A stretch of DNA of 64,000 nt from Bacillota bacterium (GCA_040766225.1 JAXGQX010000002.1:8790-72789); one strand, 5' to 3'; positions 7,200-17,540 are shown, counted from the first letter of the stretch. A program made the numbers and translations. The notes: generated by a model not told the origin, from the letters alone.

Positions 7200-8830
7200 G
7201 TGGAGCAGGAGATGAGGGATTCCGGCATCGAGCAGCTGGGCGGCGTGCCGTGGGGCTTCACGTTTGCCACTTTTATGAGTCAAAGACGGAACTGCTTGAA
7301 TCCTCGTGCCCTATACGGAGCGGGGCTCAAGAACAACGAGTGCTGCGTATGGGTTTGCTCTGAGCCGGTTTGCGAAGGGAAGCGCTCGCAGCTCTGCGTG
7401 AGGCAGTGCCCGGCCTCGATCCTTCATAGAAACCGGGCAACTGGAGGTACTTCAGTTCGATGGTTGGTATCTCCGGCCCGGCGGGGGCTTAGAGCCTGAA
7501 AACGTTCTCTGCAAATGGAAGCAGAAACTCGCCCAAGCCATCTCCGCAGGATACCAGGGTATTCGAGTAGCGGGGAACACGTCATGGGTGGAAAATGAGA
7601 TATGGAGGAGTTCACAGAGTACGAAGGGCGCATCTCCGGAGCGATAGGAAAAGACAACATCTTGGTCATGTGCTCTTACCCTTGCTCAATGAGAGAGGCT
7701 CCGCAGGTTGTAGATGTGGTCAAGAATCACCAAGCATGCTCTTGTTCGAAGCGAACTCGGCTGGGACCTCGTTGAATGCGGACGGTACTGGGAGCGCGAA
7801 TGGGGAGTCCCTTTCGACGAGATCGAAGAGGAATTCTGGTTAATGGGCGGCGAAGGGGAGATCCTGGCTGCTAACCGGGTCCTGCTGGATTGCTTCCGCG
7901 TTAAGGGCATGCGAGACCTTGGTAAGGACCTTGACGAAGCCTTTGCAGCCAAATTCGAAGTTGCGTCCCGACATTCTGACGACCGTCTCTCCCTGTTGGA
8001 AGTATTGGGGGCCGGCAATGGCCGCAGCAATTGGCTCGCCACCATACCCGAGGTGCGAGAAAGCATCGAATTGTCTATCCGCGCTCGCACTGTCCGTGCC
8101 ACCTCATACGTCTCCACTCGCTACCTTCTGCTGATCCACGACGTAAGCGGAGATCCGCCGCTTGGGCGGATGAAAGACCGGTTTGTGCAAGTCATGGGGC
8201 ACGAGTTGAAGAACCCTATTCAGGTGATGAAGGCCCTGGTGCCTCTCCTAAATATGATGGAGTCCCCCGAGATTTCAACCATCCGTCGCTACGCCAAGAT
8301 GCTGAACGCGCAGATCACGCAGCTTTCATCCCTCATCGAGGACCTGCTGACGGCTTTGCGCGTCGGAAGGCAGCCAACTACTTACTTTGAAGTCCGACCG
8401 ATCTCGTGAATCTGGTCAGCGAGCGGGGCCAATTCCCAGGTGTCGACGAAGGGTCACGAGGTTATCCAGCTGTTCACCACAAATGAAGAGCTCCCGTATT
8501 TGTGGACGGGAGGCGCGCCCGTGGGATTCTCGCCAACGTGTTCCGGGAACGCGGTGAAGTACTCTCCCGAGCACGGATTTGGATAGACATTAGGGTGCAA
8601 TCAGGTTCTGCGCTGGTCATCATCGAGGACGAAGGCGTCGGCATTCCGGATAGTGAACTGGAACTGGTTTTCAGGCGTTCTACCGCGGATCAAATACCGA
8701 TCAGACTGACGTCGACGGTGTGGGAATTGGGCTATTCATCAGCAAGAAAGTGGCTCGTCAACACGGAGGCGACCTTTGGGCGGAGCAGCGAGAAGGCGGC
8801 GGCACACGAACCATCTTGAGGCTTCCTCTC
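7200..8830 (+). pseudogene. MEDS-domain sensor histidine kinase, at least 4 frameshifts
   Basis: MEDS-like N-terminus (HVCHFYESKTELLESS...GLKNNECCVWV...NILVMCSYP). HisKA H-box VMGHELKNPIQVM in frame of 7714-8409. HATPase N/G1 box IEDEGVGIPDSELELVFRR in the 8502 frame. G2 box GIGLFISKKVARQHGGDLWAE in the 8720 frame. Confidence 0.6.
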
Positions 8831-9020
8831 TTGGAGGACCCAGCCGACCTGGCTCCGCGACTTTGGGGGGCTAGTCTATCGACGTGGGAAGTCTTGGCGT
8901 CTTATTGCCGGGAAAATGCCAAGGACAGGGTATCGAGAGGGAACACAGCGCCGCCATCGTCGTCTATACGGGTGGCGCGGCTCCTTGCGCCGTAAGTTCT
9001 GACACAAGGAGGTTTCTACC

Positions 9021-10290
9021 ATGCCGACGTCTCTTAGCCGGAATCTCGGTGATCGCGCTATCACGCGTATTGCTCTGCATTCTCGTCTGCGCCCTCAGTG
9101 TCCTCGCGCTCGCAGGCTGCGCGACGAAGCCCAACCCTGTCAATGCTACCCCAGCTAAGAACACGGTCTCTTTCGCAAAGAGGAGCGCTTCCTTTGGAAT
9201 TGACCTGTTCAAGTCCATCTACGACCCCGCCGACTCCATGAATATCGTTATGTCGCCGTTCAGCGTAACCGAAGCGCTGGCGATGGCCCTAAACGGCGCG
9301 TCAGGCGAGACATTGGAGGACATGAGCCGCGTCCTCAACTTCGGAGACTTGACGATCCCGGAGATGAACGCCGCCAGTGAGGAACTCTGCGCCATATTGA
9401 TGGGTTCTGACCCTACAAGGCAACTCCTCTTAGCCAACTCAGTCTGGCTTCGGGATGGCTACCCTTTTGATAAGGACTTCATCAATTCAGTGGAAGAGGC
9501 GTTCGAGGCGGAGGCACGCGTCCTGGATTTCACTTCTCCCAACTCTGTCCGAAAGGTCAACGATTGGGTGAAACAAAAGACCAAGGGCAAGATCGAATCC
9601 ATCCTGGACAGCATTGGCGTAAATGACCTGGCATACCTGGTAAACGCCATTTACCTGAAAGCCGATTGGTCAGACGAGTTTGACCCGAACAAGACAAGCG
9701 ACGCGCGCTTCTCCACGCCAACTTCGCAGGTGACGGTCAAGATGATGCGCAGAAAGGCTGAGTACGCGTATCTCTCTGGAGACGGGTTCCAGTCGGTTCG
9801 AATACCCTATGGCGGGGGCAGCACGGCCATGTACGTTTTCTTGCCTGACGAGGATGTGGGACTTGAAGGTTTCATTGAAGACATGGCCTCCCAGAACTGG
9901 GAGCGCTGGATGGAGAGCTACCAGAAAAAGACGGTCTCCTTGGGGATGCCGCGGTTCACCGGGAAATATGAGACGCTCATGAACGACGCTCTGAAATCTA
10001 TGGGAATGGATATCGCTTTCGACTGTGATCGGGCTGATTTCCGGGGAATGTCCTCAACGAAAGATCGGAACCCCGGCATATTCATCGGTAGGGTCATCCA
10101 CAAGGGTTTCATCTCCGTAGGGGAGAAAGGCACAGAGGCTGCCGCCGCGACCGGGGTGGTCATGGAAACTAAATCAATGCCCTTAGAACCTGAGTTGTCG
10201 GTGGTCTTGAACCGGCCGTTTTTCTACGTCATAAGAGACGATGTCACCGGAGCTGCGCTATTCATGGGGACGGTCGTGGATCCGAGTTAG
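9021..10290 (+). CDS. Serpin (serine protease inhibitor), predicted lipoprotein; 1-nt indel right after the start codon
   Basis: Serpin core motifs (NIVMSPFSVTEALAMALNGA, hinge GTEAAAATGVVME, C-terminal PFFYVIRD). AAGGAGG ribosome-binding site plus ATG at 9021 is in frame 0, while the signal peptide RRLLAGISVIALSRVLLCILVCALSVLALAGC (lipobox LAGC) is in frame 1 (ORF 8884-10290). Confidence 0.8.
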
Positions 10291-10367
10291 ACGGGGATTT
10301 GCTGTCGCAACCCCGTGACACTTGCCCAGGTGTGGATCCGAGCACGTGAAGGGAGGGCAGCCTTAAA

Positions 10368-11198
10368 ATGGGAGGAAACCCGGATACCGAGTCGAAACAC
10401 GCGGGCGAATCAACGCGCGGGCGCATCCTCAAGATGAGGCTGGGCGTGAACCCGAACTCGAGCGGCCACGGAATGCTTTTTGGATCCATGTTTTTCATCC
10501 CTTACTCAGTGCTGTCTTCAATCTTGGCCAATGCGGTGATCTCCAACCTCGATGATGCGCTGGTTTCCTACCGCGATGCCCGATCTCTGCCGTCACGCGG
10601 AGACCGCGCCCTTACGACGGCCGTATGGACTTTGGCGTGGGCGGGCTTTGTCGCGATCTGGGCTGTGCTCCTGTCGTCGATGATCTTGATTAAGGCTCCG
10701 ATATGGGGTTGGGTACTGCTAGGCGCTGCCGCGACGCTTCCCATCGCCTTCTTGGCTTACCGCGCCGCGGTCAATCCGGCTGTGGTCCTTCTGGCCAAGC
10801 GCTCTCTAAAGCCGTGTCTCTGGGGTCTCGTCCTTGGCATTTTCACGGTGCAGGTGTTTGACCCGAGCGCGAGAGATGATCTGTTGGCCGTGATTCTACC
10901 GTACGGCTACGCTGCGCCGCTTGCTATTGTGCTCGCTGCGGGTGCAGCCAGAGCGGCAGGGATTATCCGCCGAGTCGCAAACCTGTCGATTGCCTGCATA
11001 GCCTACGTGATGGTTGGACTCGTCTTGGTTTTCCCGATGCCGCCAATCTCCAGGACTGCCTATAATCCCGTTAGCTTGTTCTTCCCGTTCTGGGGTCTCG
11101 GTGTTCCCTGGGCCGTGGCGATATTATCCCTCATGAGGTTAACGATGACCGTTGCTGTCGGCCCTGATGCGTCCGAGACCGTAGACCCCCTGCCGTGA
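10368..11198 (+). CDS. Polytopic integral membrane protein (about 7 TM), unknown family
   Basis: GAAGGGAGGG ribosome-binding site; hydrophobic helices throughout; stop overlaps the start of the next gene (GTGA), indicating translational coupling. Confidence 0.6.
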   Translation: MGGNPDTESKHAGESTRGRILKMRLGVNPNSSGHGMLFGSMFFIPYSVLSSILANAVISNLDDALVSYRDARSLPSRGDRALTTAVWTLAWAGFVAIWAVLLSSMILIKAPIWGWVLLGAAATLPIAFLAYRAAVNPAVVLLAKRSLKPCLWGLVLGIFTVQVFDPSARDDLLAVILPYGYAAPLAIVLAAGAARAAGIIRRVANLSIACIAYVMVGLVLVFPMPPISRTAYNPVSLFFPFWGLGVPWAVAILSLMRLTMTVAVGPDASETVDPLP

Positions 11199-12337
11199 AG
11201 GTCCATAGGATACGCTTTGAGCATTTCGGCGGCATCATAGCCACCGACGAACCCGCGACGTTGCTGTGGGTGGATAGGGATTACTTGCGAGCCAGAGGGT
11301 TTGACGGTGGCACGGTATGGGAGGGAACAGATCCGGGCTTCCTATCGGGACCTGTCGAGGTAGAGATCGCGATCACGGCTCGCTGCAACCTCAGGTGTCC
11401 CTGCTGCTACACCTCGGCGGAACGGGGGGGACCGGACGTGTCGCTTAGGGCCGTCATCAGGGCTCTCGACGCCGCCGCCCGCGCAGGCGCTTTCCACGTC
11501 GCTTTCGGCGGCGGGGAACCCCTTATCCATCCGGACTTACTACGCATGGGCCGCGCTGCCCGCGAGCGAGCGTTGCTGCCATCGCTTACGACCAACGGAC
11601 GTTTGGTTACTCCCAGGTGGGCGAAGCAAGCGAAGGGTCTGTTTCCCCGCGTGAATGTCAGCATCGACTTGCCAGGCGGTCCACGGGATCCGGCGATGAC
11701 GCTGGACGAGTCGCTCGGTGCTGTCAGGACTCTTGTCGATAGCGGCATTACGTGTGGCTGCAACCTCATTCTGACGGAGGACATCATCCCCCAACTCGAC
11801 CGCGCGTTTTCCGAGGTCTCTAAGGCTGGGGCAGACAGCTTGATGCTCCTTAGGGCGAAACCTTCCGGGCGGGGCAGGGACGAATACGAGAGGATGCGCT
11901 TGTCCGGCCCGACCCAGTCCGCTTTAGTACCGCGCTTACTAGAGTTGTCCGAGGGCCACAAACTTCCCTTTCACCTTGACTGCGCTTTCGCGCCACTTCT
12001 TATGACCTCGCAAGTGTCACGCCGGCGCCTGGAGGACCTGGGCGCGTACGGCTGTATCGCGGGGGACTTGCTGGCTACCGTCGATCCCGATGGCCTGGTC
12101 CACCCTTGCAGTCACCTAGACTTCACCGTGGGCCGGATTGAGGACCTGCCAAGTTCGTGGACGGACGGGTCCGCCTGGGGCGCTTTCCGTGACCGCGACT
12201 CTCGCCTGACAGGGAAATGCTCTAGATGCGGCGTTAAGGACCTCTGCCGCGGCGGATGCGCTGTCGTCAACGCACATTACGGCCTCGGGCTCGACCAACC
12301 AGATCCCGGTCTAGCTTGCAGCCCGCGCTCGGTGTAG
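11195..12337 (+). CDS. Radical SAM/SPASM-domain protein with an N-terminal RRE-like element of peptide-modifying rSAMs
   Basis: CNLRCPCCY CxxxCxxC cluster. N-terminal IRFEHFGGIIATDEP...LLWVDRD resembles the leader-binding N-terminus of SuiB/streptide-type maturases. Cys-rich C-terminus (CSRCGVKDLCRGGCAV) is consistent with SPASM/twitch auxiliary clusters. Confidence 0.8.
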   Translation: MKVHRIRFEHFGGIIATDEPATLLWVDRDYLRARGFDGGTVWEGTDPGFLSGPVEVEIAITARCNLRCPCCYTSAERGGPDVSLRAVIRALDAAARAGAFHVAFGGGEPLIHPDLLRMGRAARERALLPSLTTNGRLVTPRWAKQAKGLFPRVNVSIDLPGGPRDPAMTLDESLGAVRTLVDSGITCGCNLILTEDIIPQLDRAFSEVSKAGADSLMLLRAKPSGRGRDEYERMRLSGPTQSALVPRLLELSEGHKLPFHLDCAFAPLLMTSQVSRRRLEDLGAYGCIAGDLLATVDPDGLVHPCSHLDFTVGRIEDLPSSWTDGSAWGAFRDRDSRLTGKCSRCGVKDLCRGGCAVVNAHYGLGLDQPDPGLACSPRSV

Positions 12338-12490
12338 ACCAACCTGATCCTGGCCTGGCTTGCAGCCCGTGCGCGATCTAGACCAACCAGACCCTAGCCT
12401 GGCTTGCAGCCCGGGCGCAGTGCAGACCAACTTGATCCTGGCCTGGCTTGCAGCCCGGGCGCGATCTAGACCAACCAGATCTTGGCCTAG
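12293..12490. repeat. Tandem repeat, 44-bp unit x about 4.5 (GACCAACCAGATCCTGGCCTGGCTTGCAGCCCGGGCGCGATCTA), begins inside the last codons of the rSAM gene
   Basis: Direct reading: units at 12293, 12337, 12381, 12425 and a degenerate fifth. Confidence 0.85.
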
Positions 12491-12621
12491 ATAGACTGCA
12501 GCCCGCACGCTCTTCGCACCGACAAGATCCCGGCCCTAAGCCGAATCCAAGTTCGATCTCGGCTCGATGCGCCGTCCGACCCCGTGCCGTAGTTGCCGAC
12601 GCCTTCATTCTCCCACTCCGA

Positions 12622-13020
12622 GTCATCAGAAACTGACACCTCTGGCACTAGGTCGTCAGCCATTGACGACTTCCTACCGCGGAGTCATCAGCCCGTGACG
12701 CCTTGCCGGCGCCGAGTCATCAACCACTGACACCTCTGGCGCCGAGAGTCGTCAGCCATTGACGACTTCCTATCGAGGAGTAGTCAGCCGGTGACACCGC
12801 CTGCGGCTAGTCGTCAACCACTAACACCTCTGGCACTAGGTCGTCAGCCATTGACGACCTTCCTACCGCGGAGTCATCAGCCCGTGACGCCTTGCCGGCG
12901 CGGAGTCGTCAACCACTGACACCTCCGGCGCTGGGTCGTCAGCCATTGACGACTTCCTACCGCGGAGTCGTCAGCCCGTGACACCTTGCCGGCGCCGAGT
13001 CGTCAACCACTGACACCTCG
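12622..13020. repeat. Higher-order tandem array of about 12.7 units of 30-33 bp in three alternating variants A-B-C (96-bp super-unit x about 4.2). Each unit starts GTC[G/A]TCA and carries a short inverted repeat; the B unit is GTCGTCA-GCCAT-TGACGAC.
   Basis: Units located at 12622, 12652, 12684, 12716, 12748, 12780, 12810, 12840, 12873, 12905, 12935, 12967, 12999. Stop codons in all six frames. No ORF of 60 aa or more between 12637 and 12956. Confidence 0.85.
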
Positions 13021-13149
13021 ACACCGCTTGCCCAAAATTCGGCACAAAGCATATGCGAAGTCATCTTGCGAACAGGCGCGACGTCTTGTACTATTGAGGC
13101 GTGGAGGTGACGGTTCCATGACAACGAGATTGCCCGGCAGGGCAGGCCT

Positions 13150-13316
13150 CCTAGAGCCCCAGCCACCGGCACTCCTAAGCCCCAGCCACCGGCACTCCTA
13201 GAGCCCCAGCCACCGGCACACCTAGAGCCTCAGCTATCGGCGTTCCTACGGCTCCTGTCAATCGCATTCCCACGGCCCCTGCCACGAGTATGCCCACCGC
13301 TTCAGTGGCCGCGTCG
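13150..13316. repeat. Tandem repeat, 24-bp unit x about 7 (CCTAGAGCCCCAGCCACCGGCACT, progressively degenerate), running into the 5' end of the antitoxin ORF
   Basis: Direct reading. Confidence 0.8.
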
Positions 13317-13616
13317 CCTGGGACTCCGACAAGCCTTCAACCTGCCTCTTCAGCGGGCCCGGCGGATACCGCGGCAACTGTCTACACCACAGTTAGCAGC
13401 CGGTTTCAAACCGTCATTCCGTCCGAGATCCGAGAGAAGTTTGATGTGCGAGAAGGTTCCCGGCTTATGTGGCTCGACAGGGGAGATTCCATCGAGGTGG
13501 TGCCTGTCCCGGTTAAGCCCTGGAAGGCGTTTCGTGGGGCTGCGCGGAGAAGCAAGATGTTGCTCAAAGGCGATGGTGAACAGGAAACTCTACTTGATGG
13601 AGACGATAACCCATGA
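13290..13616 (+). CDS. AbrB/MazE/SpoVT-fold antitoxin (VapB-like) with a Pro/Ala/Thr-rich N-terminal extension of about 30 aa
   Basis: TVSSRFQTVIPSEIREKFDVREGSRLMWLDRGDSIEVVPV matches the SpoVT_AbrB swapped-hairpin domain. 4-bp overlap with the downstream PIN gene. Confidence 0.7.
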   Translation: MPTASVAASPGTPTSLQPASSAGPADTAATVYTTVSSRFQTVIPSEIREKFDVREGSRLMWLDRGDSIEVVPVPVKPWKAFRGAARRSKMLLKGDGEQETLLDGDDNP

Positions 13617-14052
13617 GCGAGGCGTACCTTCTCGACACCACCTCCATTCTCGCGTTGTACCGCGATGAGGCGGGAGCCGATACCGTCGAGGAGCTTTTCG
13701 AAAAGCGAGAACGCGATGGGACAGAGTTGCTCGTTGCCTCAGTCACCCTCTTTGGGATCATGTGGATGGCCATGTCGGAGCAAGGTGAGGACAAAGCCTT
13801 TCGACTTCTACTAGACATCCGAGGTCTCAACATGCTGGAAGTTTGGCCTGACGAATCGATTCTTTGACGGCTGCCCGGCTGAAGCAGACGGGCCTCAGCG
13901 ACTCAGGGGCGTTGATAGCATCTTCAGCTTTGGCCAAGGGAGCCGTGCTTGTGCACAAGCGTCCAGAGTACAGAAGACTCGCCGAAGCCGACCGTGGGCT
14001 ACGCGTCAAAGCGTTGGACATCTCGTCGAGAGGCTCTTCTACTGGCTCTTAG
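13613..14052 (+). CDS. PIN-domain toxin (VapC-like), one frameshift near 13860
   Basis: N-terminal YLLDTTSILALYRDEAGADTVEELF plus LLVASVTLFGIMW. The C-terminal part SGALIASSALAKGAVLVHKRPEYRRL is in the next frame (ORF 13864-14052). Confidence 0.65.
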
Positions 14053-14058
14053 CCCTAT

Positions 14059-14150
14059 TCAGCCGCAGGTCGCCCGCCCGCCGCAGGTCGCCCGCCAGCC
14101 GCAGGTCGCCCGCCCGCCGCAGGGCACTCGCCCGCCGCAGGCGGTAAGAG
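14059..14150. repeat. Tandem repeat, 18-bp unit x 5 (CCGCAGGTCGCCCGCCCG)
   Basis: Direct reading. Confidence 0.8.
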
Positions 14151-14328: not shown

Positions 14329-15212
14329 ATGAACAGCTTTTCCGTAGCCTCAGGAAGAGCCCTCAAGTCCATAAGGCACCTCGTCAGTCAGGAAATCGGT
14401 GCCTGGGAGGCCCGAGGCGTTAGGATCAGCGTCAAAGAAAGTCAGGCAGGAGAGCTTCTGGTCTTGCGTTGTGAGGTCCCAAAAACCCGAGAGGTTGAGC
14501 CGCACGGAAATACTTCAGACGATAAAAGCTTCCGTAGCCAACGGATTGTCCCATATCATCGTCGACGAGTACGAGAAACTCCTGGTGGTCCGCCTGATCG
14601 ACGATAATTACGCGTACCTGTCCTCCATGACCGGGAGATCTAAAACGCAAGGCCATGTCAAAACTGGCCGGGCGGGACGGAGCTACGAGCATCGGGCACT
14701 CGGGACAGAGGAAGAGCCGGGTTTGGGCTAAACTGGCTGAATACCTGGAGCGAGAAGACGAAATCGTGCTGGAAGGCTTCATAACCTTTCGACTGAAGGA
14801 ATACCTGGAGGACCTGTTCGACACAGTTGAGGAGACCGTCGAGGATTACCTGACCGAACGTGAGTACAGGGAATTCCTAAAGCTTCTGAGACATTTCATG
14901 TCGCGACAGAAAGAGTCAACCTATCAGGTAAACATCGTGAGAGACGGGGTCCGGTACCAGGTGCTTGACGAGAAACTGAAACCTGTGTCCGGCGAGGTGG
15001 GAAGATTCTTGGATAGACCGCCTAGGGGGATCGACCTGGGTGTGGACGACCTAATCGTGAGCGCGGTGGTGACACTGGCTCCGGAACTGGTGGTTTGGCA
15101 CGGCAAGGTTGACGGTTCGCCGTGTTACGATCTCATACATGACCTCTTTGAAGGACGATTGCACGTCTGCCCCGGTTGTGCTCTGGACTCAGGCGGATCG
15201 CCGGTGGTATAA
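14329..15212 (+). CDS. ytxC: YtxC-like sporulation protein, 2 frameshifts (pieces in ORFs 14224-, 14399- and 14655-)
   Basis: GGAGGTG ribosome-binding site plus ATG at 14329. Lies immediately upstream of thrS as in Bacillus and Clostridia. C-terminal piece EYLEDLFDTVEETVEDYLTEREYREFLKLLRHF is typical of YtxC. Confidence 0.55.
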
Positions 15213-15224
15213 TGCCCAAAACAT

Positions 15225-15497
15225 ATAACGGCTGTGAAGAGGAAAGTACCTGAAGGTCTCGCAGAAGAGAGGGAAGGCCAAGGCTGAGAGCCTTCCTGCA
15301 GGCGACCGGAAGTGAACACCACCTCGGAGCCTCCGGCAGAAGCTCGCCCCGGACAGGGCAATCGAGATAATGCCGGCGCCAAGAGCGCGATACAGCAAGA
15401 CGAGGGCCGGCTAGCCTGATTCCTGATTATTGAGGGTAGCCTGGCCGTTAAGGGTGGAACCGCGGAAACCCCCGCCCCTTTTGGGACGGGGTTTTTT
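15225..15497 (+). promoter_or_regulatory. T-box riboswitch leader of thrS with terminator
   Basis: T-box sequence AAGGGTGGAACCGCGG at 15449-15465, followed by a GC hairpin and U-tract CCCCGCCCCTTTTGGGACGGGGTTTTTT at 15468-15497. Confidence 0.65.
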
Positions 15498-15586
15498 GTA
15501 TGTCCAACGGCTGTGAGTCGGCTGTGAATCGGTGGTGAATCGGTGGCGAATGTGGTGAATGCGGGGAATCAAAGGAGGCTATTGAT

Positions 15587-17540
15587 ATGTCTTTGGATGA
15601 AGTGCGAGTATCTTGCGGCGGAGCCGTCTGTGAGCGTCCCCAAAGACGGGACGTTCCTCGACGCCAAGAAGGCTTTGTCGTGGAAGAACGACGTGCTAAT
15701 GGTGTTGTCTGGAGGGGAACCCAAGGAGCTTAGGAGCAAGGTCCAGGGGAGTGTGACGTCGTCCCGTTGACCTTCGAAGACGAGCGAGCCGCTGGGCGCT
15801 CCGCACACCGCCGCTCACGTGCTCGCTCAAGCCGTAAAGCGGCTCTATCCGGGAGTACGATTGGGCATAGGCCCGGCGATTGACGAGGGCTTCTACTACG
15901 ACTTTGATCTAAAGAGCCCGTTCGTGCCGGAGGACCTGGAGAAAATAGAGGCCGAGATGAAGAAGATAGTCTCGGAGAACATCCCTGTCGTTCGCCAGGA
16001 AGTGGACAGGGAGACGGCAAGGAAGATGTTCTCCGACATGGGTGAGGACTACAAGGTCGAGTTGATAGACGACCTGCCTGAGGACTCGGTCATCTCCCTT
16101 TACAGGCAAGGCGAGTTCGTAGACCTGTGCGCCGGCCCTCACGTCCCGTCCACCGGCTACCTTAAAGCCGTGAAACTGCTGAACTTCGCGGGCGCGTACT
16201 GGCGCGGAGACGAGAAACGGCCTATGCTGCAGCGGATCTACGGTACGGCCTTCATGAGCCAGGACGACCTGAAGCAGTACCTCGACAAGCTGGAGGAAGT
16301 CAAGAAGAGGGACCACCGCAGGCTGGCCAAGGAACTGGACCTGTTCAGCATCCAAGAAGAAGGCGGCCCCGGCTTGGTCTATTGGCATGCCAAGGGCGCT
16401 CTGATTCGGGAGATAATCGAGGACTTCTGGCGCAAGGAGCACCGCAAGAGAGGCTACGATATCGTCTACTCGCCGCACATCGCCAAACTTGACCTCTGGA
16501 AGACGTCCGGGCACTGGAACTGGTACAGAGAGAGCATGTACGCTCCAATGGCCATTGAAGAAGTCGAGTACATGCTGAAGCCGATGAACTGCCCCTTCCA
16601 TATCCTGATGTTCAAGAACCAGACCAGGAGCTACAGGGACCTGCCAATGCGCATGGGCGAGCTTGGGACGGTCTACAGATACGAGCGTTCGGGCGTGCTC
16701 CACGGAGCCTTGCGCGTAAGGGGCTTTACGCAGGATGACGCTCACGTCTTCTGCACCCGGGAGCAGCTGGAAGACGAGCTGATAGGGGTCTTGGAACTGG
16801 CTCAGTTCATGCTGACGACGTTCGGCTACGCCGAGTACGAGTGTATGCTGTCGGTGAGAGACCCTGAGAACAAGGCCAAGTACGTCGGCGACGATGAGAG
16901 CTGGGCGTTGGCCCAGAACGCTTTGGAGCAGGCTCTCTTAAGAAAGAACCTTCCGTATACGGTCGAGGAAGGCGAAGCCAAATTCTACGGACCCGCCATC
17001 GACATCAAGGTTAAGGACGCTTTGGGGCGGCGCTGGCAGGGGCCCACCATCCAGGTGGACTTCAACAACCCCGAGAGGTTCGACGTCACCTATGTCGGAG
17101 AAGATGGGTTAAGGCACCGGCCCGTCATGATCCATAGGACCGTCTTAGGCAGCATGGAACGCTTTGTGGCAGGGCTGGTGGAACACTACGCCGGAGCTTT
17201 CCCGTTGTGGCTGTCTCCCACCCAAGTCACGGTCATTCCTATCGCCGACAAGATGGCGGGCTACGCAGAGAAGGTAGCTGCCGCGCTTCGAGAAGAAGGG
17301 TTCCGCGTGAACTGCGACCTCGGACACGAGAAGATGGGTTTCAAGATTCGGCAGGCCCAGATGCAGAAAGTCCCGTACATGCTCGTGGTCGGAGCCAGAG
17401 AAGAGGAGAGCGGGACGGTCTCTGTTCGTCACCGGGCGGGTGGCGACATGGGGGCCATGCCCCTGGATGCCTTCATCAGGGGGGCCAAGGAGGAACTGGC
17501 GACCAAGTCCCTTGAGATGCTGGTGAAGTCGCAAACGTAG
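15587..17540 (+). CDS. thrS: Threonyl-tRNA synthetase; N-terminal TGS region (15587-15820) carries at least 2 frameshifts, remainder intact (ORF 15819-17540)
   Basis: Class II aaRS motifs. HTAAHVLAQAVKRLYPGVRLGIGPAIDEGFYYDFD matches the ThrRS editing-domain start. Upstream frames give GTFLDAKKAL and VVPLTFEDE, matching the ThrRS N-terminus. Confidence 0.9.

Follow-up and report, generated by a model that had tools for sequence, protein, structure and literature searches.

A stretch of DNA of 64,000 nucleotides from a Bacillota bacterium (GCA_040766225.1, JAXGQX010000002.1:8790-72789), which at its full length is called the window here, carries two overlapping genes, one coding for a membrane protein (10368-11198), the other for a radical S-adenosylmethionine (rSAM) enzyme with a SPASM region (11195-12337). 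The two genes represent a conserved and often translationally coupled pair, in which an rSAM-SPASM enzyme is encoded together with a membrane-tethered element carrying the motif NPNSS. The sequence comparisons presented below lead us to favour, with a little better than even confidence, the view that the pair is a two-gene maturation module and that the N-terminal tail of the membrane protein, or a small peptide at other loci, would be the substrate of the enzyme. More tentatively, and with rather less than even confidence, we propose that NPNSS is the site of an undescribed post-translational modification, made by a dedicated rSAM-SPASM enzyme at the cytoplasmic membrane interface of a small (in this Bacillota lineage polytopic) membrane protein.

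The rSAM-SPASM enzymes have been a main source of new peptide chemistry. To our knowledge nearly all of the cases studied concern soluble peptides, built from a leader and a core, which end as secreted products or as free cofactors. The presumed substrate in the window is a membrane-tethered protein, and its five-residue invariant motif is without the usual cross-linking residues.

An earlier reading of the same DNA, here called the original prediction, described three genes, a lipoprotein serpin followed by the membrane protein and the enzyme, as a possible modification system. The three open reading frames (ORFs) are found as it placed them (8884-10290, 10368-11198 and 11195-12337), all on the + strand. 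The features of the last two genes, counted from the first letter of the window, are the following.

10348-10357, + strand: Shine-Dalgarno sequence GAAGGGAGGG, 10 nt 5' of the ATG of the membrane-protein gene, read from the sequence
10368-11198, + strand: membrane-protein gene, 276 aa, NPNSS N-terminal tail followed by a polytopic helical domain
10416-10472, + strand: conserved motif of the tail, RGRILKMRLGVNPNSSGHG (residues 17-35), in which a strand-like basic stretch precedes NPNSS; proposed site of recognition and modification
10449-10463, + strand: codons for N-P-N-S-S, residues 28-32, the sole such motif in the window when all six frames are scanned
10473-10541, + strand: first hydrophobic helix, residues ~36-58, directly after the motif, from a hydropathy scan and the AlphaFold2 (AF2) helix 33-71
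11040-11096, + strand: C-terminal motif PPISRTAYNPVSLFFPFWG, which lies in the polytopic domain and is specific to the fused Bacillota-type family
11195-11198, + strand: GTGA overlap, in which the GTG start of the rSAM gene lies over the TGA stop of the membrane-protein gene
11195-12337, + strand: radical SAM/SPASM enzyme gene of an unnamed family, 380 aa, Pfam Radical_SAM E = 3e-16
11195-11329, + strand: N-terminal domain particular to the family (residues 1-45), which the homology to PqqE/MftC does not reach
11384-11407, + strand: CX3CX2C radical SAM cluster motif (C64, C68, C71), invariant in 33 family members
12053-12319, + strand: SPASM region with C287, C305, C342, C345, C351, C355 and C375 (and C263 upstream), ligands for two auxiliary [4Fe-4S] clusters

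The NPNSS element and its occurrence beside the enzyme

Evidence for the pair comes from its recurrence. A scan of one genome per species gave 438 relatives of the enzyme confirmed by tblastn, and the best 80 loci were examined. Judged by the titles of their records, they come from Bacillota, Myxococcota, Desulfobacterota and other "Deltaproteobacteria", Planctomycetota, Spirochaetales, Bacteroidota, Elusimicrobia, Fibrobacterota, Hydrogenedentota, Aminicenantes, Lentisphaeria and Anaerolineae, that is from >10 phyla, and cultured carriers among them include Desulfobacter curvatus DSM 3379 and Geomesophilobacter sediminis Red875. An exact NPNSS peptide is encoded upstream and on the same strand at 56 of the 80 loci, and a search with a hidden Markov model (HMM) finds a member of the motif family within the available flanks of the rSAM gene at 68, including the rare variants NANSS and GANCS. 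The chance expectation for the pattern NPN[ST][ST] is, by our own estimate, about 0.006 per locus. In the reverse direction, all three peptides that were looked up (3/3) lie directly 5' of a Radical_SAM gene.

The partner that carries the motif is usually a protein of 50-110 aa with a single helix. We gathered 74 distinct peptides with the pattern NPN[ST][ST], so the invariance of the motif among them is conditioned on that pattern; all 74 read NPNSS. The glycine at +7 (the second glycine) is invariant independently of the selection. The consensus of the 74 peptides is (K/R)-G-(R/K)-(I/V)-L-(R/K)-(V/I)-(K/R)-x-G-(Y)-N-P-N-S-S-(S/G)-x-G, after which hydrophobic residues come. When 5.8 billion proteins were searched with a profile, 1,636 peptide clusters were obtained. 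In the best 120 of these the proteins are 49-74 aa long, contain no Pfam domain and are called "hypothetical protein" if they are named at all. They begin essentially at the motif (MKGRILKIKTGYNPNSSS...), with a median of 4 Lys/Arg and 0 Asp/Glu in the N-terminal flank, and a hydrophobic segment of ~26 residues follows the motif in the same register before a mixed-charge tail of ~20 residues. The small peptides have no curated family in Pfam, NCBIfam or PADLOC, and we found nothing relevant in the literature on NPNSS, on DUF2950 (see below) or on SPASM combined with membrane or transmembrane. The partner family is large, phylogenetically broad and unnamed.

The membrane protein of the window was originally said to be of unknown family, which holds for Pfam, NCBIfam and PADLOC, where it has no family match. 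By a hydropathy scan it has roughly seven hydrophobic segments; its AF2 model (predicted template modelling score, pTM, 0.76) has eight helices past residue 33 (33-71, 77-105, 112-133, 137-147, 151-164, 172-196, 203-221 and 234-263). Residues 1-30 are modelled with a predicted local distance difference test score (pLDDT) <50 and yet they are the best-conserved segment of the protein. The tail is without acidic residues, and its net charge is about +4. Its residues 17-35 are nearly invariant across the family in which tail and polytopic domain are fused, and agree with the consensus of the small peptides. Residues 1-35 of the window protein are homologous to the very large small-peptide family encoded beside orthologues of the enzyme. 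Low pLDDT together with high conservation is the behaviour to be expected of a segment which is ordered only on a partner, and because the tail is predicted to be unstructured yet is most conserved, it would act like a partner-binding segment.

All of the enzymes 52-82% identical to that of the window have an overlapping upstream gene without a Pfam domain. The proteins encoded by these genes agree with that of the window in G(R/K)ILKxRxGxNPNSSGHG at the N-terminus and PPxxxxxYNPVGLFFPxWG at the C-terminus. At one locus (L003) the protein is split into genes of 77 aa (the tail) and 194 aa. Enzymes from other phyla which are 33-39% identical have a short upstream ORF overlapping the rSAM start, of 65 aa at L005 and 113 aa at L008; the sequences of these distant ORFs contain ...GRILSIRFGYNPNSSSLG... 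and ...GRILRMRMGFNPNSSSVG..., after which comes a single hydrophobic helix. Some loci encode two peptide paralogues for a single enzyme, and it should be noted that several peptide paralogues per enzyme are often found at loci for peptides that are ribosomally synthesised and then modified post-translationally (RiPPs). To judge from the sequences, the pair has one hallmark of a RiPP cluster, an encoded precursor peptide beside a modifying enzyme.

The start of the enzyme gene is in agreement with a coupling of the two genes. The GTGA overlap of start and stop was seen correctly at the outset (the junction reads CCGTGAAGG), and the rSAM start has, as read from the sequence, no Shine-Dalgarno sequence of its own upstream, which fits translational coupling to the membrane-protein gene. 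The identical 4-nt overlap is found at L001, L013 and L020, and an overlap or a gap of <=100 nt at many distant loci.

It was also stated at the outset that no precursor peptide was found. As to a separate ORF this is borne out. The only gap among the serpin, membrane-protein and rSAM genes is one of 77 nt (10291-10367), and a check of 10200-13400 for small ORFs gave this gap and repeat readings only; the candidates after 12337 were rejected as readings of 44-bp tandem copies of the 3' end of the rSAM gene. The statement was nevertheless misleading, as a precursor-like element is found in the first 35 residues of the membrane protein, homologous to peptides of 50-110 aa, and the "missing precursor" is by sequence most likely this N-terminal tail.

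Fusion of the tail to a polytopic domain is rare. Among 1.84 billion representatives searched exhaustively with an HMM there are 43 such proteins, ~20 of them full length. In the motif PPISRTAYNPVSLFFPFWG, compared in 22 fused-family members, N233 and W242 are invariant and P226, V235 and F239 nearly so; it is also found at L001, L002 and L003. A homology of the window's polytopic domain to the TPR-membrane proteins of other loci was considered and rejected, as BLASTP finds no similarity, and the TPR-membrane proteins are therefore lineage-specific accessories.

Two further observations may be added. At the closely related locus L011 (4481-6131) the module looks degraded; the membrane protein has 181 aa and an internal deletion by which the motif is fused straight to later helices, and the rSAM protein is without DLCRGG, including one SPASM cysteine. 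The protein P0040 is a membrane protein fused to a SPASM fragment.

The other genes beside the pair vary by lineage and none is universal among 62 downstream and 68 upstream neighbours. Commonest are Metallophos (purple acid phosphatase-like) proteins and TPR-membrane proteins, each at 13 of the 68 upstream positions, followed by DUF2950 at 7 and HupE_UreJ_2 permeases at 4 of the 62 downstream positions. Larger locus types occur in other phyla (L065, L019, L022, L090-L092). The Desulfobacter-type locus (L065, 96-6802) encodes a first peptide, a ResA-like thioredoxin, a metallophosphoesterase of ~800 aa that includes a membrane domain, a second peptide, a TPR-membrane protein, the rSAM enzyme and a DUF2950-like protein. 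A second type has a purple acid phosphatase, an unknown protein, the peptide, the rSAM enzyme and a HupE_UreJ_2 permease, to which L090 adds a TonB-dependent receptor. The composition of these loci hints at an envelope, metal or phosphate context.

The enzyme and its N-terminal domain

The protein encoded at 11195-12337 is a member of the radical SAM superfamily (Pfam PF04055, 60.5 bits against a cutoff of 29.5). The Cys-rich C-terminus noticed in the original prediction turned out to hold the full set of SPASM cysteines. In an alignment of 33 members all of these are invariant except C351, which is kept in >=90%. The Pfam SPASM model (PF13186) gives the window enzyme 20.3 bits, marginally under its cutoff of 21.5; the orthologue at L065 obtains 44.2 bits with TIGR04085 (cutoff 27), and the window enzyme aligns through the SPASM domain of PqqE. 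By its full seven-cysteine set (CX9-17GX4C ... CX2CX5CX3C ... C) the enzyme belongs to the SPASM subfamily, of the two-cluster type.

No curated family claims it. The best NCBIfam score is that of MftC (TIGR03962), 100.4 bits against a cutoff of 265, followed by NirJ (85 against 515), AhbD (81 against 500) and PqqE (TIGR02109; 53 against 381). NirJ, AhbC and AhbD together (TIGR04051, TIGR04546 and TIGR04545) reach 56-85 bits against cutoffs of 500-650, and the enzyme scores far under the cutoffs of the sactipeptide and ranthipeptide maturase models. In PADLOC, which models anti-phage defence systems, the generic rSAM core (residues 57-158) alone is similar to pVip models; beyond this core there is no match to a defence system, and none at all for the serpin, the peptide or the membrane protein. 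The enzyme belongs to a distinct, unnamed rSAM/SPASM clade outside every curated family tested. In the next clade out (P0064 type) the N-terminal domain is longer and no NPNSS peptide was found near the rSAM genes, which marks the boundary of the family.

The closest solved structure by sequence is PqqE (6c8v, E = 6.8e-38), which aligns at profile positions 48-378. Since the match begins at position 48, the first ~47 residues are specific to the family. The AF2 model of the enzyme, built on the 33 family members, has a pLDDT of 94 and a pTM of 0.92, and with Foldseek its top solved structures are SuiB (E = 1.8e-17, TM score 0.72-0.74), then SkfB, CteB, PqqE and anSME, which are all modifiers of peptides or proteins. 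Because of these closest solved relatives, the complete set of cysteines and the position of the N-terminal sheet, the enzyme resembles the peptide-modifying rSAM-SPASM enzymes.

The N-terminus was originally described as similar to a RiPP recognition element (RRE) of the SuiB type, and the sequence quoted for it, MKVHRIRFEHFGGIIATDEPATLLWVDRD, is present in the rSAM ORF. This description is partly supported. The AF2 model has three strands (3-9, 12-18 and 21-27) and a short helix (28-33) ahead of the rSAM barrel, the sheet occupies the position which the RRE has in peptide-modifying rSAM-SPASM enzymes, and the best structural match is SuiB; the impression thus has a structural basis in the model. 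Conserved residues of the domain in two alignments (A1 and A2) are R7, E9, F11, G12, P20, V26, D27, G35 and W42. The assignment as an RRE of the PqqD type could not be upheld by sequence. The Pfam model PqqD has no match at E <= 10 in three N-termini, while the control, the distant relative P0083, obtains 45 bits. An hhalign comparison with the genuine PqqD domain of P0083 aligns 7 columns (R-x-E-x-F-G) at 1% probability, and a search of the PDB with the N-terminal profile found no RRE. An RRE consists of a three-stranded sheet and three helices and has similarity to the PqqD profile; sequence and model together suggest that the window domain is only part of one.

What the enzyme may act on

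The mechanism that we propose for the maturation module is the following. The N-terminal tail would face the cytoplasm, a topology that we infer. Its basic segment (GRILKVK-like) would dock as an added strand on the three-stranded N-terminal sheet of the enzyme, and the docking would put NPNSS, lying just a few residues off the surface of the membrane, into the active site. Reductive cleavage of SAM would then give a 5'-deoxyadenosyl radical which takes a hydrogen from an invariant Asn or Ser, and the two auxiliary SPASM clusters would accept the electron. The outcome would likely be an oxidation or an intramolecular cross-link inside NPNSS. The modified protein would stay in the membrane, and no secreted natural product would be made. 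That NPNSS looks like a site of modification is because the glycine at +7 is invariant, NPNSS is constant, the family comprises 1,636 clusters and there are paralogues of the peptide for one enzyme. The suggestion made originally that the enzyme could act on the membrane protein is the one favoured by the evidence presented here.

Several observations weigh against this proposal. Known SPASM cross-links usually involve Cys, Trp or Tyr, and the tail has no Cys, no Trp and no invariant Tyr. The motif stands on the N-terminal side of a membrane helix, which is the reverse of the usual layout of leader and then core. No peptide was found within the available sequence at 12 of the 80 loci, several of which are on very short contigs. 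The C-terminal tails of the small peptides also bear Lys/Arg (median 3), so the topology is one that we infer. No family of proteases or exporters, by which a RiPP would be released, recurs among the 62 downstream and 68 upstream neighbours. The N-terminal domain has neither helix 2 nor helix 3 of the canonical RRE, where the leader-binding groove lies, and Pfam and hhalign give it no sequence relation to PqqD. Finally, in the crystal structure of SuiB the RRE reportedly does not hold the leader.

The most serious of the other explanations, which we nevertheless regard as unlikely, assumes that the tail or peptide with NPNSS is no substrate but a subunit which docks the enzyme at the cytoplasmic face of the membrane or activates it, and that the enzyme acts there on a small molecule within the membrane, e.g., a lipid, quinone or tetrapyrrole. 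The fixed register in which the motif abuts the hydrophobic helix would fit such a subunit, as would a tail without the residues of known SPASM cross-links. Small-molecule rSAM enzymes also score in a similar range (NirJ, AhbD and the lipid C-C bond-forming GDGT/MAS enzyme 7tol), and the accessories are membrane or envelope proteins (HupE_UreJ_2, TPR-membrane, metallophosphoesterases, ResA-like thioredoxin) and not proteases or exporters. However, five consecutive invariant residues over >10 phyla would be rare for a mere docking strand, and two peptide paralogues per enzyme suit substrates better than anchors. Furthermore, the best structural matches are modifiers of peptides, and no genes for the biosynthesis of small molecules are conserved alongside.

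A classical RiPP pathway is clearly improbable. It would have the peptide modified and cleaved and a soluble or exported product released, with the helix as a temporary tether or an export signal. The short coupled ORF beside an rSAM-SPASM enzyme and the several peptide paralogues at some loci are as such a pathway would have them, and the C-terminal tails vary, which regions of RiPPs may also do under diversifying pressure. A conserved N-terminus with a variable C-terminus is, however, the opposite of most leader and core patterns, and neither a protease nor an ABC exporter is conserved. The motif of the window and its relatives is moreover a covalent part of a membrane protein with ~7 helices, and it is hard to see how a product would be released from this.

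That the enzyme is a housekeeping enzyme of cofactor biosynthesis (of the MftC, PqqE, NirJ/AhbD or anSME kind) with an incidental neighbourhood would explain why MftC, NirJ and AhbD lead the NCBIfam matches and PqqE the sequence matches in the PDB, but it is contradicted by scores far under every curated cutoff, by the conserved peptide partner and by a window which has no mftA/B, pqqA-D or heme d1 genes near the rSAM gene, so that we give it hardly any credence. The original prediction had named as fatal to itself a best score to a housekeeping family with no conserved neighbourhood, or a membrane protein of a known unrelated transporter family; neither was obtained, the housekeeping families scoring far under their cutoffs.

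Comparison with known systems places the maturation module nearest to RiPP-type rSAM-SPASM maturation, and by analogy near to anSME as regards action on part of a large protein. The SuiB/StrB-type maturases (PDB 5v1q/5v1s/5v1t) are the best structural match, with the TM score given above normalised to the query over ~430 aligned columns, and they share with the window enzyme the rSAM core, the two-cluster SPASM domain, an additional domain at the N-terminus and, as the presumed substrate, a short neighbouring ORF. They differ from it in sequence, the identity being 18-19%, and SuiB has a full RRE of ~100 residues where the window domain has ~45. The partner in the window has no Lys-Trp pair; it has NPNSS followed by a membrane helix, and its release is improbable.

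PqqE (PDB 6c8v) and MftC are closest by sequence, and both act on a small ribosomal peptide to give a peptide-derived product. Neither has the N-terminal domain of the window enzyme. They rely on the separate chaperones PqqD and MftB and on peptides with Glu/Tyr or a C-terminal Val-Tyr, and such genes and residues are not found here.

The best functional analogy for modification of the tail of a large protein may be anSME (PDB 4k36-4k39; structural match E about 1e-11 to 1e-12). It modifies a short invariant motif in a full-length protein, where the side chain of a Ser or Cys is oxidised. There is, however, no sulfatase motif (C/S)-x-(P/A)-x-R here, and anSME has no N-terminal sheet domain and targets soluble exported enzymes.

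The PqqD-like RRE (PF05402) has the AF2 three-stranded sheet and the same N-terminal position in common with the window domain, and the first strand R-x-E-x-F-G is shared with the PqqD-type N-terminus of P0083; the differences are those given above. The ABC-2 and type V ABC exporter permease domains (PmtD, ABCG5/8, KpsM, NosY) are also among the closest known systems. The module would thus depart from the known kind in its presumed membrane-tethered substrate, in a motif N-terminal to the helix, in the missing residues of known cross-links and in a truncated recognition domain.

If the proposal is true, it describes a widespread class of membrane-retained, RiPP-like protein maturation, with 1,636 peptide clusters in >10 phyla, whose partner family has no Pfam or NCBIfam model and on which we found no paper. 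At the far end the product could be a peptide-derived cofactor anchored in the membrane or a cross-link between peptide and lipid, and the recurring genes of an envelope, metal and redox kind (for purple acid phosphatase-like proteins, HupE/UreJ-like permeases and a ResA-like thioredoxin) would agree with this. The proposed substrate region is a peptide of roughly 25 residues which can be synthesised, e.g., MKGRILKIKTGYNPNSSSIGVDMVA. For annotation it means that a RiPP-like precursor can hide as the N-terminal tail of a larger membrane protein, and a misleading link to the serpin is removed.

The serpin, the downstream repeats and other neighbours

The gene upstream of the pair codes for a lipoprotein serpin, as originally described.

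8884-10290, + strand: lipoprotein serpin gene, 468 aa, Pfam Serpin E = 1.1e-102

The Pfam match (344 bits, profile positions 3-370 of 370) covers a full-length serpin domain, and a lipobox LAGC, with its Cys codon at 9118-9120, closes the hydrophobic segment. The serpin homologue at L011 has the N-terminus MTESTFTRVLVIALLCLIGVSGLTGC and the lipobox LTGC.

The original prediction united the serpin, the membrane protein and the enzyme in a three-gene system, in which the enzyme possibly modifies the secreted serpin. This rests on the adjoining of the three genes on the same strand in the window, and likewise at L011 and L012. However, among 93 related loci searched with tblastn the serpin lies beside the module only at these two, which are the closest relatives, and it was not found by tblastn at L001/L010, L002, L003, L013 and L014, where the enzymes are 52-82% identical. 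A serpin lipoprotein is moreover exported unfolded through Sec, while the enzyme is a cytoplasmic Fe-S protein, and a terminator-like hairpin (10197-10216) lies within the 3' end of the serpin gene, ahead of a membrane-protein gene that has its own Shine-Dalgarno sequence. The three-gene system is thus contradicted by the missing co-occurrence, and we consider it extremely improbable. The conserved neighbourhood that was looked for exists as the coupled pair of membrane protein and enzyme, which fall in no curated family, and does not extend to the serpin. Because its recurrence is confined to L011 and L012, the serpin appears to be an unrelated neighbour outside the conserved module, with shared synteny and no functional linkage.

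The 5' end of the serpin gene is peculiar. The true start is probably the in-frame GTG at 9049 instead of 8884. This candidate is without a good Shine-Dalgarno sequence, and a strong one, AAGGAGG (9006-9012), is followed by an ATG (9021) which is out of frame relative to the serpin ORF. The layout of 9006-9051 suggests an indel at the 5' end of the serpin gene or a mis-assembled base. Further 5', a sensor histidine kinase is split into >=3 frames (7200-7499, 7714-8409 with HisKA, and 8502-8819 with HATPase_c / 8720-8995), and its counterpart at L011 is a single intact ORF of 592 aa. The histidine kinase of the window (7200-8995) is either a pseudogene or the result of indel errors in the assembly. 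With several broken genes near the module, some of the local frameshifts may be sequencing artefacts; the two genes of the module are both intact.

The unusual repeat island noticed immediately downstream of the rSAM gene consists of tandem arrays with units of 44, 94, 24 and 18 bp, in which Rfam gives no credible match. The 44-bp unit is present in 4.5 copies (12293-12488). Its first copy comprises the last 42 nt of the rSAM gene plus the TAG stop and encodes DQPDPGLACSPRSV and the stop, including the last SPASM cysteine C375. The later copies preserve this peptide reading in shifted frames, and the 3' end of the rSAM gene has therefore been tandemly duplicated. The repeat occurs in a single place in the window and is absent from the relative L010.

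The 94-bp array (12618-13019) has 4.3 copies with sub-units of ~32 nt, and a palindrome GTCGTCAGCCATTGACGAC is exact in four of the sub-units. An array with a 94-bp unit, in 2.8 copies, is also found at L011 (6129-6389), directly 3' of the rSAM gene there. The two remaining arrays, with units of 24 bp (4.2 copies, 13148-13248) and 18 bp (4.4 copies, 14062-14141), flank toxin-antitoxin genes. An AbrB/MazE-type antitoxin gene (13290-13616) overlaps the ORF of a PIN-domain toxin (13613-13867, 84 aa), whose match covers only positions 1-71 of a PIN profile of 120 positions; the remainder may continue in another frame at 13864-14052.

Still further downstream (14655-17540) are a fragment of a YtxC-like sporulation protein, matching the C-terminal two thirds of the profile, and then threonyl-tRNA synthetase. 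The ytxC-thrS arrangement is typical of Bacillota, and it fits the Bacillota relatives of the module.

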